Positions 1,257 to 51,680 of a stretch of 64,000 nt of DNA are shown piece after piece; the first letter of the stretch is position 1, and the number at the start of each line of letters is the position of its first letter. The notes beneath the pieces were generated by a model. The model made no database searches and was not told the origin of the DNA. It saw only the letters and a list, made by a program, of their open reading frames with translations. The translations under genes and the position numbers were made by a program. The stretch spans positions 128,001 through 192,000 of the forward strand of contig CAVUHW010000008.1 in NCBI GenBank assembly GCA_963741205.1, given 5' to 3'. This DNA is from Nitrospirota bacterium. Lineage in GTDB: Bacteria > Nitrospirota > UBA9217.

Positions 1257-1294
1257 AGGAGGGGGTGGTTCACATCACTCCCTCCTATTTTTTT
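1257..1294 (+). terminator. Intrinsic terminator after ahbD
   Basis: AGGAGGGGGTG...CACTCCCTCCT hairpin followed by a T run. Confidence 0.7.
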
Positions 1295-1471: not shown

Positions 1472-2803
1472 ATGAAACCTATCTGTATCGTAGACGACCA
1501 GCCTTCCATTTCCTCCACCGTTGCGAGCATTCTGAAGGACGAGGGATACCAGGCCCTTTCATTTCCGGATGCGGAGAGTTTCTTGCAGAGGCTCGATACC
1601 CTGGAGCCTTCTCTCGTCCTGCTGGATATCTGGCTCCCGGGCATAGACGGCATGCAGCTCTTGAAACGTCTGCAGGACCGGTTCCCCGCGCTCCCCGTCA
1701 TCATGATGAGCGGACATGCCGGAATCGAGGCGGCGGTTGCCGCGATCAAGGCGGGGGCCTACGATTTTTTGGAGAAACCGCTGCATCTGGAGGTTTTACT
1801 CGACAAGGTGGCGTCCGCTTTGAAGCACCGGCCGGTCGGGACCAACGAGACCCTGCCCTCGGATACGCGTCTTGAGATCGCAAGCGCCGACCATGCGATG
1901 CCTCCCGGCGCGGTGGACGTGGTGGATTCTCCTGAACCTCAGCGCACCCTCAAGGGGAATGTGGTCCTGAACGGGACAGGGCTCCTGAGCGGCAGGAACA
2001 CGGGGATCATCCTGAGCCCCCTCGGGATCAACGAGGGGATCGTCTTTCAAACGCTTGACGGTCAAACCATCAGCGGACATATTACTTCCCTTGAGGATTA
2101 CTCACAGTCAGTCTCGTCGAAGACCTTTTCCGCGAACTCCACGACCCTGGTCAACGGCTTTCGGCGCGTGCGCACGGTTGAACACCTGATGGCGGTTCTT
2201 TCCATGTACGGTATAACCAACGTGCTGGTAAAGGTCGATGAGGAAATACCGAACACGGACGGTTCCGCCCAGCATTTCTGCGACCTCATCGGGGAGGCGG
2301 GGATCGAGGAACAGCCTGCCTTCACCAAGGTCGCCGTCATCCGCAGGAAGATCGGCGTGGGAAATGAGGAGAGGGGAGAAAAGCACCTCTATGCGGAGCC
2401 GTTTGAAGGGTTCGAGATATCGATGCGGGTCGACTACCCGACGCCTATAGGCGAACAAGTCCTCACATTCAATCCTGAACGTATGTCCTTTGCAAAGATG
2501 ATAGCCCCGGCCCGCTCTTTCAACACCTTTGAAAATATCGAAATGGCCCAGAAACTCGGAAAGGTGGGAGGCGGATACCTCAATTCCCATATCATCATGT
2601 ACGACGGCAAGGTCATCAACACTGAACTCCGCTATCCCGACGAATTCGTGCGCCACAAGATATTGGACCTGATCGGAGACCTCTACCTCCTCGGTCATCA
2701 CATCAGAGGACGCATTATTGCCAACATGACCTCCCACGGTTATAATCAGGCCCTGGTGCAACGCTTGTACGAGGCTGTCCAGAGCAGCTCCAGGAAATTA
2801 TGA
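1472..2803 (+). CDS. lpxC: Response-regulator receiver domain fused to UDP-3-O-acyl-GlcNAc deacetylase
   Basis: N-terminal REC (VDD, LLDIWLPG, MMSGH, FLEKP); C-terminal LpxC motifs QRTL, TVEHL, DGSA, APARSF, RHKILDLIGDL, SHGYN. Confidence 0.9.
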   Translation: MKPICIVDDQPSISSTVASILKDEGYQALSFPDAESFLQRLDTLEPSLVLLDIWLPGIDGMQLLKRLQDRFPALPVIMMSGHAGIEAAVAAIKAGAYDFLEKPLHLEVLLDKVASALKHRPVGTNETLPSDTRLEIASADHAMPPGAVDVVDSPEPQRTLKGNVVLNGTGLLSGRNTGIILSPLGINEGIVFQTLDGQTISGHITSLEDYSQSVSSKTFSANSTTLVNGFRRVRTVEHLMAVLSMYGITNVLVKVDEEIPNTDGSAQHFCDLIGEAGIEEQPAFTKVAVIRRKIGVGNEERGEKHLYAEPFEGFEISMRVDYPTPIGEQVLTFNPERMSFAKMIAPARSFNTFENIEMAQKLGKVGGGYLNSHIIMYDGKVINTELRYPDEFVRHKILDLIGDLYLLGHHIRGRIIANMTSHGYNQALVQRLYEAVQSSSRKL

Positions 2804-2864: not shown

Positions 2865-3635
2865 ATGAAGTTAAAGCATTTGCTTTGCGGTTTTTTCATT
2901 GTGGTTGTAGCGGCATCATCCGTGTTCGCAGTACCGACGCAGATCACTGTCCGGGTCAAGTCCAAGGACGCTAAGTTCGTGGGCACCAGTATGGGGGGCG
3001 TTCTGATCACGATCAGGAACGTACAGACCGGCGAGCTATTGGCCAAGGGGCGTACCGCCGGCGGCACGGGCAATACGGCCAAGATCATGACGACGCCGAT
3101 CACGCGGGGCGTGGCCATTTCTGACGAGAGCGCGGCCAAATTCTCCGCCACTATCGACATCGACGAACCGGTCCAGGTCGAGGTGACTGCGTTCGGGCCT
3201 TCCGCAAGCCTTCAGTCCGCCAACAAAGTATCCGCGACCCAGTGGGTGGTGCCGGGCAAAAACATCACTGAGGGCGATGCCTGGCTTATGGAGCTGCGGG
3301 GCTTCGCGGTGGACGTGTTGGCCCCTCCCACGCACTCCATGCTCATGGGAGTGCCGCAGGCCGTGGCCATCAAGGCCAATATCACGATGATGTGCGGCTG
3401 TCCCATCACGCCCGGCGGCCTGTGGGATGCGAACAAGTTTGAAGTGGCGGCCCTCCTGAGCAAAGACGGGCAGCGCATCGGCGTCCTGCCCCTCCAGTAT
3501 GCCGGGAGCACCAGCCAGTTCTCCGCAATCTGGAACCTGCAGGAGCCGGGGACCTATGAAGCGACGGTGTATGCCTACGACGCTTCGAACGGGAATACCG
3601 GGATTGACAGCGTGACCTTCATGGTAGGAAAATAG
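2865..3635 (+). CDS. Secreted hypothetical protein with MMCGCP motif
   Basis: RBS AGGAGGAG, signal-peptide-like N-terminus, beta-rich composition. Confidence 0.8.
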   Translation: MKLKHLLCGFFIVVVAASSVFAVPTQITVRVKSKDAKFVGTSMGGVLITIRNVQTGELLAKGRTAGGTGNTAKIMTTPITRGVAISDESAAKFSATIDIDEPVQVEVTAFGPSASLQSANKVSATQWVVPGKNITEGDAWLMELRGFAVDVLAPPTHSMLMGVPQAVAIKANITMMCGCPITPGGLWDANKFEVAALLSKDGQRIGVLPLQYAGSTSQFSAIWNLQEPGTYEATVYAYDASNGNTGIDSVTFMVGK

Positions 3636-5979: not shown

Positions 5980-6819
5980 TTGGAGCTGCAATCCATGGAC
6001 ACCCTTTCCGGAAAAAGGAAACTCGGCCTTGCCTTAAGCGGGGGCGCCACCCGCGGCCTGGCGCATATCGGCGTGCTCCAGGCGCTTGAAGAGAACGGCC
6101 TTTGGCCCGATTTTATTTCCGGCACGAGCATCGGCGCTTTCGCCGCCGTTCTTTACGGCTTCGGCGTACCGCTTGCGAAGATGCGGACCGTGGGGGAGGG
6201 GATGACCCCTCTCCGGGTCACGAAGCTCAAGCTTTCCCGGTACAGCCTCTTCTCGAACGAGGAGTTGGGCAAGCTCATCAAGGCGGAGATCGGGACCGCC
6301 CGGCTCGAAGAGTCTCCTATTCCGCTCGCCATCGTGACGACGGACATCAGCACGGGCGAGAAAGTCGTGCTGCGGGAGGGCGAGGCAGCGTCAGCGGTGA
6401 TGGCGAGCAGCGCGCTGGCGGGCATCTACCTGCCGGTGCGCATAAACAACAGGCTGCTGATGGACGGCGGCATCATGGAGGACGTGCCGATTTCGCCGCT
6501 TCGCATGATGGGCGCCGACGTCGTGGTGGCCGTCAATCTGAGCGCCCAGCGCAAGTACCGGATGCCCGAGGACATTATCGACATCCTCTTCAATGCCTTC
6601 GATATCGCCATTGACGAGAACACCAAGGTCCAGGTGAAGGCAGCCGATGTGCTCATCGAGCCCTGCCTGTTCGATTTTCGCCGCATGGATGTGAGCCAGA
6701 TCGACGAACTCATCGCGGAGGGTCGCCGGGCCGCCGTGGAAAGCATCCCCCGGATCAGGGAAGAGCTGGAGCGTCCCGCGGGACAGGCCGCCTCCCGGAA
6801 AGATCTTTGCGCCGAATAA
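5980..6819 (+). CDS. Patatin-like phospholipase
   Basis: LALSGGATRG, GTSIG nucleophile elbow, DGG motif. Confidence 0.92.
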   Translation: MELQSMDTLSGKRKLGLALSGGATRGLAHIGVLQALEENGLWPDFISGTSIGAFAAVLYGFGVPLAKMRTVGEGMTPLRVTKLKLSRYSLFSNEELGKLIKAEIGTARLEESPIPLAIVTTDISTGEKVVLREGEAASAVMASSALAGIYLPVRINNRLLMDGGIMEDVPISPLRMMGADVVVAVNLSAQRKYRMPEDIIDILFNAFDIAIDENTKVQVKAADVLIEPCLFDFRRMDVSQIDELIAEGRRAAVESIPRIREELERPAGQAASRKDLCAE

Positions 6820-7298
6820 AATCCGCACGGGTGATCACTTCCAACGACTCATCATCCTGTTGGCATTCGTGTTACCAAGACCATTAAGAAAAAGAGCGGC
6901 TGCGAACAGTTTCAGGACGAAACCTGCGGTTCCCGTTGACCACACTTTGTTTTTCTATGCCTGTATAACCTTGCTGCTATCTTTGTATGAAATTTCTTCG
7001 CCTTGATCGTCCCGGACATTTTCTGCAATTTTTGTCGGATTGACACAGGTATACAGAGAGTTAAAATATATCAGGAGAGATGCAAGGTAGAGCAATGTCT
7101 CTTCAAGCCGGGGGCCCCAGATAATGACCCTCGGCTCTCATTTTGTGCGCGGAAATCGCGGCAACGCCCTGCACTCGCGCTGTCGCACACCCTGCATTCG
7201 CGCTAGCACTCATAACCGCTGGGTGCAGGCTCATAATCGCCGGGTGCAGGTTCGGTTGCCTTGCTCCCTGAAAACATGGTATAACGTCCCGACACTCC

Positions 7299-8414
7299 AT
7301 GGATAGTCAAGCTCACATGCAAAACGACAAACTAAAATCCCTTGCTCAAAAGGTCGCCCGGCTCTCTCATCTCCTGACGCGGGAGCGAGAGGACCTGCCG
7401 GCCTCATACCTGAAGGATGCGGGGCTCCGGGAAGCGTATCTCTCGTATTTTCTCCCCCCGAACCTCGGGAAAATTCATGTGCCGCTCAGGGAACTGTCGC
7501 GCCATCCCGAAAGGCTGCTGGAAAAGGACAGGCTCCGGATCCTTGATCTGGGCTGCGGGCCGGGCACTTCGCTGCTCGGCATACTCGAATTTTTCGCGGC
7601 GCAGGAGAAACGTCCTCATCTCGAGTTCGTCGCACTCGATCTCGTTGCCGAGAACCTGAAAATCGCCGAGGATTTATTTGCCTCCTCGCGGAGCGCGAAG
7701 GCGCTCCCGGCCTCCCTGAAGACCATCCGCTCGAGCATCGAGAGCGCAGGGCAGCATGTTGCAGGGGCCTTCGATCTCATCATCCTCTCGAATGTCCTGA
7801 ACGAGCTTTTCGCCCATGAAGGGCGGAAGATCGAAAAACGGTTTGTGGTGACGGAGGAGATCATAACAACGCTGCTCGCGGACAACGGCAGCCTCATCAT
7901 CATCGAGCCGGCCCTGCGTGATACGTCGCGGGAGCTGCTAGAAGTCAGGGACCGATTGCTGGGCGAGGGTTTTCACATCTACGCCCCCTGTTTCTTCCGA
8001 GGAAAATGCCCGGCCCTCGCGAATCCCAAGGACTGGTGCCATGAAGACATTCCGTGGGACCCGCCTGCCGTGATCAGGGAACTGGACAGGCTGACGGGAC
8101 TTCGGAAAGATTCGCTCAAGTTCTCCTGGCTCGTCCTGCGAAAGGACGGCCTCTCGGCAGCCGACTTCTACGGCAGGAATTCCTTCCGTGTTGTAAGCGA
8201 GCCGCTCGTTTCCAAGGGCAAAGTCGAATTCTACCTCTGCGGCATGAACGGAAGAAAACTCGTAACACGGCTCGACAAGGACAGGTCCGCAGGCAACGAA
8301 GGCATGGGAGCGATGAGGCGGGGCGATGTTGTAGTCTTCGAGGGGCTTCTCGACGAGGGGAAGCGATATAAAGTCGGTAAGGATACCAGCGTAAGTGTAA
8401 GAAGCAACCGCTGA
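7299..8414 (+). CDS. Rsm22/METTL17-family SAM-dependent methyltransferase
   Basis: YLSYFLP, ILDLGCGPGT, SNVLNEL, IIEP, APC-x5-CP...WCH. Confidence 0.8.
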   Translation: MDSQAHMQNDKLKSLAQKVARLSHLLTREREDLPASYLKDAGLREAYLSYFLPPNLGKIHVPLRELSRHPERLLEKDRLRILDLGCGPGTSLLGILEFFAAQEKRPHLEFVALDLVAENLKIAEDLFASSRSAKALPASLKTIRSSIESAGQHVAGAFDLIILSNVLNELFAHEGRKIEKRFVVTEEIITTLLADNGSLIIIEPALRDTSRELLEVRDRLLGEGFHIYAPCFFRGKCPALANPKDWCHEDIPWDPPAVIRELDRLTGLRKDSLKFSWLVLRKDGLSAADFYGRNSFRVVSEPLVSKGKVEFYLCGMNGRKLVTRLDKDRSAGNEGMGAMRRGDVVVFEGLLDEGKRYKVGKDTSVSVRSNR

Positions 8415-8459
8415 TTGCTTCTTGATTCCCGCCCCTGTTTACCGTATTATCTCCCCGAT

Positions 8460-9014
8460 ATGAGCAGATACCGTCCGCCCCAGAAACCGGGCTCCAAGTA
8501 CATCACCCCCGAAGGCAAGAAGCGCCTCTCCGACGAGTTCGAATATCTCTGGCGGACCAAGCGCCCCGAGGTGACGGCGGCCCTCGCGGCGGCCGCTGCA
8601 GAGGGCGACCGTTCGGAAAATGCGGAGTATATCTACCGCAAGAAGCAGCTCCGCGAAATAGACTCCCGGATCCACCATCTCAAAGAGCGGCTCGAACACA
8701 TCGTCGTCGTGGACAGTCCGCCGGACAACGAGTCGCAGGTGTTTTTCGGGGCCTGGGTGCGGCTTGAGGACGAAGAGGGGAACAGGAGCGAATACCGCAT
8801 CGTGGGGCCCGATGAATTCGACCCCGCAAAGAACCTGATCAGCATGGACTCCCCCATGGCCAGGGCGCTCATGAAAAAGTCCGAAGGCGACGAGGTCGTC
8901 GTGAAGCGGCCGAAGGGTGACGCGATGTTTACGATCCTGTGCGTTCAGTATGAGCCGTTTCGAGATAACACGTTCTTGATCGCGAACATAGTAGCCTACA
9001 TTCCATGCGGATAA
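8460..9014 (+). CDS. greB: Transcription elongation factor GreB
   Basis: YITPEG, GDRSENAEYIYRKKQLREID, ISMDSPMARAL. Confidence 0.93.
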   Translation: MSRYRPPQKPGSKYITPEGKKRLSDEFEYLWRTKRPEVTAALAAAAAEGDRSENAEYIYRKKQLREIDSRIHHLKERLEHIVVVDSPPDNESQVFFGAWVRLEDEEGNRSEYRIVGPDEFDPAKNLISMDSPMARALMKKSEGDEVVVKRPKGDAMFTILCVQYEPFRDNTFLIANIVAYIPCG

Positions 9015-9131
9015 CAAAGAGCCCATCACCCCTCGCATGCCTCTCCCATCGAAGGGAGGAGGAGCCTTAAAAAACGGATTCCCGCTTCAAGGGGAGTGGC
9101 CAGGGATTGGCACTGAGAATATCACGATCAG

Positions 9132-26816: not shown

Positions 26817-28870
<2,054 letters not shown>

Positions 28871-50223: not shown

Positions 50224-51680
50224 ATGACCAATGAACGAGTACTCATAGCCGACGACGACGAGAGCCTCCGGTGGGTGCTCAAGAAGGCCCTCGAAAAAGA
50301 GGGCATCGAGACGGCCCTTGCCAAGGACGGCAACGAGGCGCTTGAGCGGCTCAAAGAAGGCGATATCTCGATCGTGCTGATGGACATCCGCATGCCCGGG
50401 ATGGGAGGGTTCGAGGCCCTCGACAAGATCCGGTCCTCGGGTGACGGACCGTCGGTCATCATCATGACCGGCCAGGCCACGATGCAGAACGCCATTGAAG
50501 CCATGCGCCGCGGCGCCTTCGACTACATCACCAAGCCCTTTGACCTCGACGAGGTGAACATCCTCGTCCGGAAGGCGCATTGAGGTCAGGCGTCTGTCGC
50601 AGGAAGTGAACCGCGCTCCGTGCCGAGGTGCGGGAAAAGTACGAGGGCGGGCTCGTGGGCAACACGGCCGCCATGCAGGAGATCTACAAGACCATCGGCC
50701 GCGTCGCGGAGAGCGACGCGACGGTCCTGATCCACGGCGAGAGCGGCACGGGCAAGGAGCTTGTGGCCCGGGCCATTCACTACCACAGCAAGCGGGCCGG
50801 CCGGCCCTTCGTGGCCGTGAACTCCGCGGCCATCCCGTCGGAGCTCCTGGAGAGCGAGCTCTTCGGCCATGAGAAAGGCGCCTTTACCGGCGCGGTCGCC
50901 CGCAAGATCGGCAAGTTCGAGGCGGCGGCGGGCGGGACCCTGTTTCTGGACGAGATCGGCGACATGAACCTGCCGCTCCAGGGCAAGCTTTTGCGCGTGC
51001 TGCAGGAGAAGGAGTTCGAGCGCGTGGGCGGCACCGAGCCGATCAAGACGGATGTGCGCGTCCTGGCCGCGACCCACCATAACCTCGAAAAGATGGTTCA
51101 CGAGAAACGTTTCCGCGAGGACCTGTTCTACCGTCTGAACGTGATCCAGATCAACATCCCGCCGCTCAGGAAGCGCAAGGACGACATCGTCGCGCTGGCC
51201 GAGTTCTTCATGCAGAAATACCAGGGCGGCGACGCGAAGAAGAAGGTCCTGACCCCCGAGACGCTCAAGATCCTCCGCGCCTATGACTGGCCGGGAAACG
51301 TGCGCGAGCTGGAGAACGCCGTTCAGCGCGCCATCACCCTGTCCCAGGGCGATAAGATATTTCCCGACTCTTTGCCGCCGCAGATTTTCAAGCCCGGTCA
51401 GGGCGCGCACTTATCCTTCGAAAATTTTCTCGAAGAGAAGCTCGCCGACCTCGTGGAGCGAATGGGCGGGCTCGAGCGGGGCGACATCTATTCCCTGGTG
51501 CTCCACCGCGTGGAAAAGCCGCTCATCACCCTGGTTCTCAAAAAGACCGACGGCAACCAGGTCCGCGCCGCCCACCTCTTAGGCATCAACCGCAACACCC
51601 TCCGGAAGAAGATCAAGGAACTGGCGATCAAGGGGCCCTTCAGCGCTGAGGAGGAAGAGGGAACGGAAGAGGAAGAGTGA
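50224..51680 (+). CDS. ntrC: Sigma-54 response regulator NtrC-like (frameshift at about 50580-50625)
   Basis: REC domain; [32 protein letters not shown]; Fis-type [14 protein letters not shown]. Confidence 0.9.

Follow-up and report, generated by a model that had tools for sequence, protein, structure and literature searches.

An LpxC enzyme fused to an NtrX-type receiver domain in Nitrospirota: candidate two-component control of lipid A synthesis

The enzyme LpxC, one of the leading targets for antibiotics, determines the flux into lipid A, and its control is known to be exerted either through proteolysis by FtsH/LapB and relatives, as in E. coli, where the FtsH signal lies in the C-terminal tail of the enzyme, or at the level of transcription. 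Another described class of proteins, represented by CheB, PleD/WspR and RpfG, carries an enzyme whose output changes upon phosphorylation of a receiver domain. Here we analyze an open reading frame (ORF) that joins both elements, a receiver (REC) domain followed by LpxC, located at positions 1472..2803 of the forward strand of a 64,000-nucleotide stretch of DNA (hereafter the window) from a Nitrospirota bacterium (assembly GCA_963741205.1, contig CAVUHW010000008.1, positions 128,001 to 192,000). A preliminary description of this ORF, made from the sequence alone, had proposed it as a candidate for phosphorylation-gated lipid A synthesis, an interpretation supported by the computational checks presented below. 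In our reading, the ORF probably encodes a genuine UDP-3-O-acyl-GlcNAc deacetylase (LpxC) with a phosphorylatable receiver that comes from an NtrX-type regulator.

The fusion gene and its two domains

The gene consists of one uninterrupted ORF of 443 amino acids (aa), as previously described, started by an ATG and opening with MKPICIVDD, a start common to its homologues, and we confirm that this single intact ORF contains both a full receiver and a full LpxC. Residues 4-113 (1481..1810, +) match Pfam family PF00072 (Response_reg) over positions 1-110 of the 111 in the profile (E 1.7e-29, 102.6 bits, cut-off 30.2), and residues 157-433 (1940..2770, +) match PF03331 (LpxC) over positions 1-267 of 268 (E 6.5e-72, 242.7 bits, cut-off 27), with the C-terminus of the protein about 10 residues beyond this match. 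The protein also scores over the curated cut-off of the NCBIfam lpxC equivalog TIGR00325 (204.8 vs 187.25 bits), and is matched by the LpxC half of the LpxC-FabZ model NF009667 (174.8 bits). For the receiver, which is of the NtrX/NtrC type, the top NCBIfam match was NtrX (NF051870), with 110 bits obtained over the receiver portion only and a cut-off of 600, and the best solved relatives include PDB chain 4d6x (E 1.1e-25) and 5m7n, which we take to be Brucella NtrX entries. A Pfam search of the whole 443 aa found no remnant of an AAA+ or helix-turn-helix (HTH; HTH_8) domain.

The receiver had been described as intact and NtrX/NtrC-like, and besides the family match all of its signaling residues were located: D8 and D9, the predicted phospho-acceptor D52 within LLDIW (codon at 1625..1627, +), S80 within MMSGH and K102 within EKP. 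Comparison with 134 close relatives revealed that D8, D52, K102, F99, W54 and H82 are kept in every one of them and D9 and S80 in 133, and in 19 distant REC-LpxC proteins the pocket residues D8, D9, D52, S80 and K102 are kept in 17 to 19 (D52 in 18). Downstream of the receiver, the linker (residues 119-155; 1826..1936, +) is poorly conserved and is predicted to be disordered at residues 120-141, where the predicted local distance difference test score (pLDDT) falls below 50. Mean identity among close relatives was 87% for the receiver, 88% for the LpxC domain and 72% for the linker, and among distant relatives 40-41% for the domains and 10% for the linker. As the receiver is as conserved as the enzyme while the linker drifts, this is the pattern expected from selection on a working receiver with a flexible tether, and not that expected of a relic. 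A two-chain complex prediction between the receiver (1-120) and LpxC (142-443), run with alignments, returned a score of 0.00, which is no answer (the controls were not run) and bears neither way on an intramolecular contact.

The three LpxC motifs that had been read as retained were found at residues 235-238 (TVEH), 395-403 (HKILDLIGD) and 421-423 (SHG). In the available excerpt of a study on the P. aeruginosa enzyme (PMC11877204), H78, H237 and D241 are given as zinc ligands, and E77, H264, K238 and D245 as catalytic neighbours. Alignment with PDB chains places E237-H238 (2180..2185, +) on the catalytic E77 and the zinc ligand H78, H395-K396-x2-D399-x3-D403 (2654..2680, +) on H237, K238, D241 (zinc ligands and lysine) and D245, and H422 (2735..2737, +) on the catalytic histidine H264, so that H238, H395 and D399 coincide with the three zinc ligands and E237, H422, K396 and F350 with E77, H264, K238 and F191. 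At the position of T190 the protein has S349, a conservative change. When 52 fused and 51 canonical LpxC domains were compared, E237, H238, H395, K396, D399, D403, H422, R348 and F350 were invariant in both sets (52/52 and 51/51), and no alignment column was conserved to different residues in the two groups.

Besides T190S, two further deviations were found, and all three are confined to the subclade of the window protein. H19, the active-site histidine of the canonical GLHSG motif, is replaced by L172 (codon at 1985..1987, +); the fused domains have L in 10/52 and H in 36/52, and H is found in 46/51 of the canonical ones. L172 is shared, together with the intact catalytic set, by all six genomes examined for which no LpxC other than the fusion was found, so that the change is apparently compatible with serving as sole LpxC, and H19L appears to be tolerated in a true LpxC. 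The second deviation is a ten-residue insertion (residues 209-218; 2096..2125, +) confined to the subclade of the window protein, the corresponding columns being gaps in 41-42 of the 52 fused and 47-51 of the 51 canonical domains; its structure is predicted with low confidence (pLDDT below 50 at 213-220). The AlphaFold2 model of the whole protein, built on a 71-row alignment (mean pLDDT 84.8, predicted template-modelling score 0.71), has two well-predicted domains. A Foldseek search against the PDB ranked LpxC structures at the top (template-modelling score 0.81-0.93, target-normalised; root-mean-square deviation 2.0-2.9 over 281-298 columns), and in the predicted model the C-terminal part thus adopts the LpxC fold, at about 35-37% sequence identity between fused and canonical enzymes.

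Distribution and descent of the fusion

How widespread the fusion is could not be told by the preliminary description. A search of 5.8 billion proteins found the Response_reg plus LpxC architecture in at least 120 clusters: the best 120, which were those listed, all carry PF00072 and PF03331, with 84-91% identity and lengths of 439-479 aa, and several are named Nitrospirota. A one-genome-per-species search yielded 15 loci that encode the fusion in full and a further one truncated at the end of its contig. By label, these loci include Nitrospirota, Desulfobulbales (among which the cultured Desulfopila sp. IMCC35006) and metagenome-assembled genomes (MAGs) under the names Myxococcota, delta proteobacteria, Oligoflexales, Bdellovibrionota and Leptospirales. 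A separate observation concerns a minus-strand REC-LpxC gene (locus L020, G022:C22:1-2559). Over residues 1-318 its product shares 83.6% identity with the window protein, but it then continues in frame into unrelated hydrophobic sequence and thus lacks the C-terminal catalytic residues; either the contig is chimeric or the gene has truly been rearranged.

Within the taxonomic family of the window, the LpxC content of 64 genomes was counted by hand. Both forms, fused and canonical, were found in 20 genomes, that of the window (G000) included, and only the fusion in 16, of which 8 are 97-100% complete; one genome has the fusion plus an unassignable fragment, and one only a partial fusion-type match. 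Another 21 have only the canonical form (two of them with a broken or cut second copy), and the remaining five have nothing or a fragment. The fusion type is therefore carried by 38 of the 64, and it was found in none of 16 genomes sampled from other families of the phylum. We also observed, in a genome with a canonical lpxC, a second LpxC copy split into two pieces, one of them with a TAG inside (G046:C14:235031-235862).

To place the fusion within its wider family, a profile-free scan of 1.84 billion cluster representatives was carried out, giving 399 proteins at E <= 1e-30, the best 150 of which were sorted by architecture, using the domains of the window protein and of two hits as queries. 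Among these 150 there were 43 REC-LpxC proteins (some of them fragments), 15 REC-AAA+(-HTH)-LpxC proteins of 650-736 aa, 2 REC-HTH-LpxC, 5 AAA+-LpxC (possibly truncated at the N-terminus), 58 LpxC alone and 27 others, namely proteins with only a receiver and a few whose architecture was odd or had duplicated matches; Pfam results on ten of the classified proteins agreed with the assigned architectures. In one long form, P0125, the N-terminal 445 residues align with the NtrX model over its whole length (343.6 bits, profile positions 3-451 of 452). None of 19 members with an AAA+ domain showed a GAFTGA-like motif in a pattern search, the absence of this motif being what is expected of NtrX-type rather than sigma-54-activating proteins.

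Full long forms are encoded at three metagenome loci, two of which were annotated (L103, 5023-10223; L104, 5036-10190). Both have the same order, a DUF4390 gene, a kinase gene with the domains NtrY_N-HAMP-PAS-HisKA-HATPase and then the NtrX-LpxC fusion (730-743 aa), the three genes being co-directional and separated by short gaps, with mutS and a sugar epimerase gene on the flanks of the operon. This arrangement is presumed to be the ancestral operon form. Because the long forms match NtrX end to end and sit behind an NtrY-type kinase, the family is best described as NtrX with LpxC appended, in ntrYX operons.

A tree was built from 107 LpxC domains, taking those representatives whose single match spanned 260 or more of the 281 query positions (fragments were dropped) and adding the window protein, 8 fusion loci and 6 canonical genes from relatives. 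It is unrooted and was obtained by a quick IQ-TREE search with Shimodaira-Hasegawa-like approximate likelihood-ratio test (SH-aLRT) support only. Fifty stand-alone LpxC sequences, and one with an unidentified N-terminal extension, form one side (SH-aLRT 99), and all 52 fused domains fall on the other, together with four sequences of 283-292 aa classified as LpxC alone, whose gene calls may be truncated. Several times, REC-LpxC and REC-HTH-LpxC rows fall inside REC-AAA+-LpxC groups, which fits a repeated loss of the middle modules (AAA+ and HTH). The window protein falls in a group of 13 rows with support 100. Lacking AAA+ and HTH_8 and scoring below the NtrX cut-off, it is not itself an NtrX, and its place in the tree is that of a descendant of NtrX-LpxC fusions, the receiver being, on the comparisons above, the remnant of an NtrX-type regulator.

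The gene also seems to have moved between phyla. The fusion of the window is 80.5% identical to that of Desulfopila sp. IMCC35006 over 442 residues, whereas the canonical LpxC of a relative from the same genus as the window (G014) shares 43.7% identity with that of Desulfopila, and the Desulfopila fusion nests among Nitrospirota sequences in the tree. Neighbouring genes, moreover, are not conserved around the fusion (see below). The simplest reading is the lateral spread of a single gene. No compositional sign of recent transfer was found, the guanine-plus-cytosine content of the gene (0.563) being that of its genome (0.563).

Role in lipid A synthesis, possible control and alternative explanations

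The genomes with no LpxC found other than the fusion (fusion-only genomes) provide the strongest available argument on its function. Within the family, three of them (G011, G016 and G024) had no canonical copy on a new search with the TIGR00325 model and a canonical protein query; outside the family, only the fusion type was found by Pfam in G042 (labelled a chromosome), G044 and G045, the first two of which were searched again with the protein query. Pathway genes scored over their cut-offs in these genomes, lpxA in G011, G016 and G024 and lpxB in G011, G024, G042, G044 and G045. As the fusion-only genomes tested carry lpxA and/or lpxB, the fused enzyme is most likely a genuine lipid A LpxC, and in part of the family it has probably replaced the ordinary lpxC.

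The genome of the window does have a second, canonical lpxC, a possibility that the preliminary description had raised for checking. This gene lies on contig C43 (G000:C43:28090-28990; locus L004, about 1490-2400) and is read in three frame pieces, with a surplus T near 28213 and, 280 nt further on, a T-run near 28496 that is one base short. In contigs about 99% alike from an independent sequencing run, X1, the extra letter is absent at the first break (one contig, depth 5.3) and one extra letter is present at the second (read from a 9-letter loose end of one contig, depth 2.3), both differences bringing back the reading frame that relatives have; neither site was covered by runs X2-X4. The ntrY gene of the same genome (contig C26, locus L186, about 6400-9110, minus strand) is likewise split, its NtrY_N, HAMP and PAS-HisKA pieces lying in at least three frames, which looks like another sign of indel errors in the assembly; rpoB is intact. 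As the X1 contigs restore both frames and ntrY is also split, the breaks are probably assembly errors or strain differences, and pseudogenization of the canonical lpxC was dropped as an explanation.

With respect to control, it had been noted that no cognate kinase adjoins the fusion, and indeed none of the ORFs examined, over about 12 kb on its upstream side and about 8 kb on its downstream side, has a histidine kinase domain. One NtrY-type kinase is present in each of G000, G011 and G024, on another contig than the fusion in G000, and in the other two flanked by genes for a LysM protein and an Ogg glycosylase, no response regulator being adjacent. By descent, this kinase class is the most plausible partner of the fusion receiver. 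A phylogenetic profile of NtrY against the fusion was rejected as non-discriminating, since 37 of 41 relatives have NtrY_N, with or without the fusion. All three genomes tested for stand-alone NtrX-like regulators (G000, G002 and G024) have them.

We infer from these data that the fusion is regulated by phosphorylation, and the following scheme would account for it. An ancestral NtrX with LpxC at its C-terminus (REC-AAA+-HTH-LpxC), encoded directly behind an NtrY-type kinase, would have lost its AAA+ and HTH modules repeatedly to give REC-linker-LpxC, and in the subclade of the window the gene would have become a stand-alone orphan and moved between phyla. In present-day cells a kinase, most plausibly the orphan NtrY-type one of the genome, would phosphorylate D52 and thereby change the output of LpxC, whether through dimerisation of the receiver, as in NtrC/NtrX-type receivers, through release of an inhibitory contact between receiver and enzyme, as in CheB, or through altered protein stability, three routes that we do not rank. 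Such phospho-control could stand in for the FtsH/LapB proteolysis of enterobacteria. A further proposal is that, because the kinase class is present in most recipients, the fusion gene works on arrival and can displace the housekeeping lpxC, so that a phosphorylation switch, and no longer regulated proteolysis, would govern growth of the outer membrane; we put this forward only tentatively and consider it somewhat doubtful.

Several points weigh against the reading of the fusion as a phosphorylation-controlled lipid A enzyme. Its regulatory step is pure inference, and the tree comes from a quick search with a single kind of support value. The fusion-only calls come largely from metagenome-assembled genomes, in any single one of which a gene may have been missed. 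Coexistence with a canonical lpxC in 20 of the 64 family genomes, including that of the window, means that here the fusion could be an accessory copy. The H19L and T190S changes and the insertions near the rim of the active site in the window subclade leave room for a shifted substrate preference. Finally, co-occurrence does not single out NtrY, given the presence of NtrY in most relatives regardless of the fusion and that of stand-alone NtrX-like regulators.

Four other explanations were weighed. According to the first, LpxC is constitutive and the receiver is a vestigial or purely structural leftover of NtrX, whose phosphorylation controls nothing. An orphan gene with no kinase beside it, the repeated loss of AAA+ and HTH as a sign of ongoing domain decay, and the risk in switching off an essential sole enzyme would all fit this explanation, but a relic should not have kept its acidic pocket, phospho-acceptor, switch serine and lysine in 133-134 of 134 close and 17-19 of 19 distant relatives, nor evolve at the pace of the enzyme while the linker between them drifts, a pattern that fits a working receiver. 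We therefore regard it as unlikely.

The second explanation, which we consider quite improbable, holds that the LpxC-like domain is a neofunctionalised paralogue deacetylating another substrate (another acylated UDP-sugar or a polysaccharide intermediate) under two-component control, outside lipid A synthesis. The fused domains do lie on their own side of a well-supported branch, the window subclade has the two substitutions and the ten-residue insertion, a canonical lpxC accompanies the fusion in 20 family genomes, and no lipid A gene adjoins the fusion. On the other hand, 16 of the 64 family genomes are fusion-only, 8 of them at 97-100% completeness, and the three tested have lpxA over its cut-off (two of them lpxB as well); in addition, the TIGR00325 equivalog cut-off is exceeded and no column is fixed to different residues between fused and canonical domains.

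In the third, which appears very improbable, the fusion would be a signaling device whose LpxC domain senses lipid A precursors and modulates the receiver as a phosphate sink or kinase competitor, tuning NtrY-NtrX. This would suit the long forms, with LpxC on a complete DNA-binding regulator, and the presence of NtrX-like regulators and an NtrY-type kinase alongside the fusion in G000 and G024, but sensors derived from enzymes usually lose their catalytic residues, which here are invariant in 52/52 fused domains, and the fusion-only genomes need LpxC activity. The fourth, an assembly artefact in which a misjoin or frameshift joined two separate genes, could appeal to the indel-type breaks in other genes of this assembly (canonical lpxC in three frame pieces, ntrY in at least three) but is already refuted, since the architecture is widespread, at 439-479 aa in all of the best 120 clusters, at full length in 15 independent genome records, one from a cultured isolate, and in 38 of 64 family genomes, so that the misjoin restricted to this assembly that the preliminary description had allowed for fails.

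Surroundings of the gene and comparison with known systems

Upstream of the fusion is a radical SAM/SPASM gene (217-1236, +), just past which a strong terminator-like hairpin of 13 pairs followed by a T-run was found (1257..1286, +), so that the fusion gene is probably transcribed separately, on its own transcript. A sigma-70 promoter scan of the 235-nt upstream gap found no promoter, and inspection of the upstream sequence revealed no Shine-Dalgarno-like run ahead of the ATG. The radical SAM/SPASM gene is overlapped by long ORFs in alternative frames and has its Cx3Cx2C motif only a few residues past the listed GTG start; it may in reality begin farther upstream, or have lost its beginning to a frameshift. 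Immediately past the fusion, an ORF of 256 aa (2865-3635, +) has a hydrophobic N-terminus, a strong GGAGGAG Shine-Dalgarno-like run and no Pfam family, and its adjacency to the fusion is not kept elsewhere. Neighbours in general are not shared: tblastn of the ORFs flanking the fusion in the window against 19 fusion loci found none in common, and all-vs-all clustering of the ORFs within about 8 kb, over 15 loci and the window, found none kept, with the sole exception of an ORF group present in 5 loci, whose member in the window has an ABC-transporter ATPase domain. Further along the window, positions 50583-51626 (+; G000:C8:178583-179626) match the AAA+/HTH region of the NtrX/NtrC model (280.5 bits), with a single TGA inside the match; the gene could be broken, the assembly wrong or the codon recoded.

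If its control by phosphorylation is true, a receiver within LpxC represents a third control logic for this enzyme, post-translational and operated by a two-component kinase, in an architecture conserved across several phyla that in some lineages governs the only LpxC found. The role of NtrYX in the envelope is, to our knowledge, known only genetically, in alphaproteobacteria, and the fusion would be a "Rosetta stone" that physically ties NtrYX to lipid A synthesis; Desulfopila sp. IMCC35006 offers a cultured carrier. Beyond the preliminary description, the present analysis contributes the origin of the receiver as a probable remnant of an NtrX-type regulator, NtrY as the likely kinase class, and the finding of the fusion as sole LpxC in 16 of the 64 family genomes. 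What the window itself adds is an orphan, apparently laterally spread subclade, the count of fusion-only genomes in its family and the H19L deviation. A full-text literature search found no paper describing a receiver-LpxC or NtrX-LpxC fusion, although supplementary architecture tables, which lie outside such a search, could list one, and a term search of a 2025 review on lipid A regulation (PMC12444477) showed "response regulator", "fusion" and "fused" to be all absent. The fusion is thus apparently an undescribed, conserved variant both of the enzymatic-output response regulator and of LpxC regulation.

Compared with canonical LpxC, the fused enzyme shares the fold and the zinc and catalytic residues and scores over the same equivalog cut-off, but it has an N-terminal receiver, forms a separate clade at about 35-37% identity and, in the window protein, shows H19L, T190S and the insertion at 209-218. 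LpxC-FabZ (NF009667) is another natural LpxC fusion, whose partner is a metabolic enzyme at the C-terminus, whereas here a signaling domain has been placed at the N-terminus. Receiver, flexible linker and catalytic domain follow one another as in CheB, PleD/WspR and RpfG, with the difference that the output is a lipid A biosynthetic metalloamidase and not a signaling enzyme. Two-component control aimed at LpxC has a precedent in Desulfovibrio vulgaris, where the response regulator DVU2934 binds upstream of lpxC, as stated in the available excerpt of that study (PMC3333781), but that control is transcriptional and exerted by a separate DNA-binding regulator, whereas in the fusion the receiver is within the enzyme polypeptide.

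The closest system by descent is NtrY/NtrX, in which NtrX combines a receiver, an AAA+ domain lacking GAFTGA and a Fis-type HTH. In Rhodobacter sphaeroides, according to the available excerpt of the report (PMC7240162), loss of NtrYX increases lpxC mRNA 8.8-fold and also raises lipopolysaccharide, which is a physiological link of NtrYX to lipid A. The receiver of the window protein has NtrX as its top family match, and its long relatives match NtrX and follow DUF4390 and an NtrY-type kinase. In contrast to NtrX, the window protein has neither AAA+ nor HTH, which rules out a role as transcription factor; it has an enzyme as output, and its gene does not stand beside ntrY.

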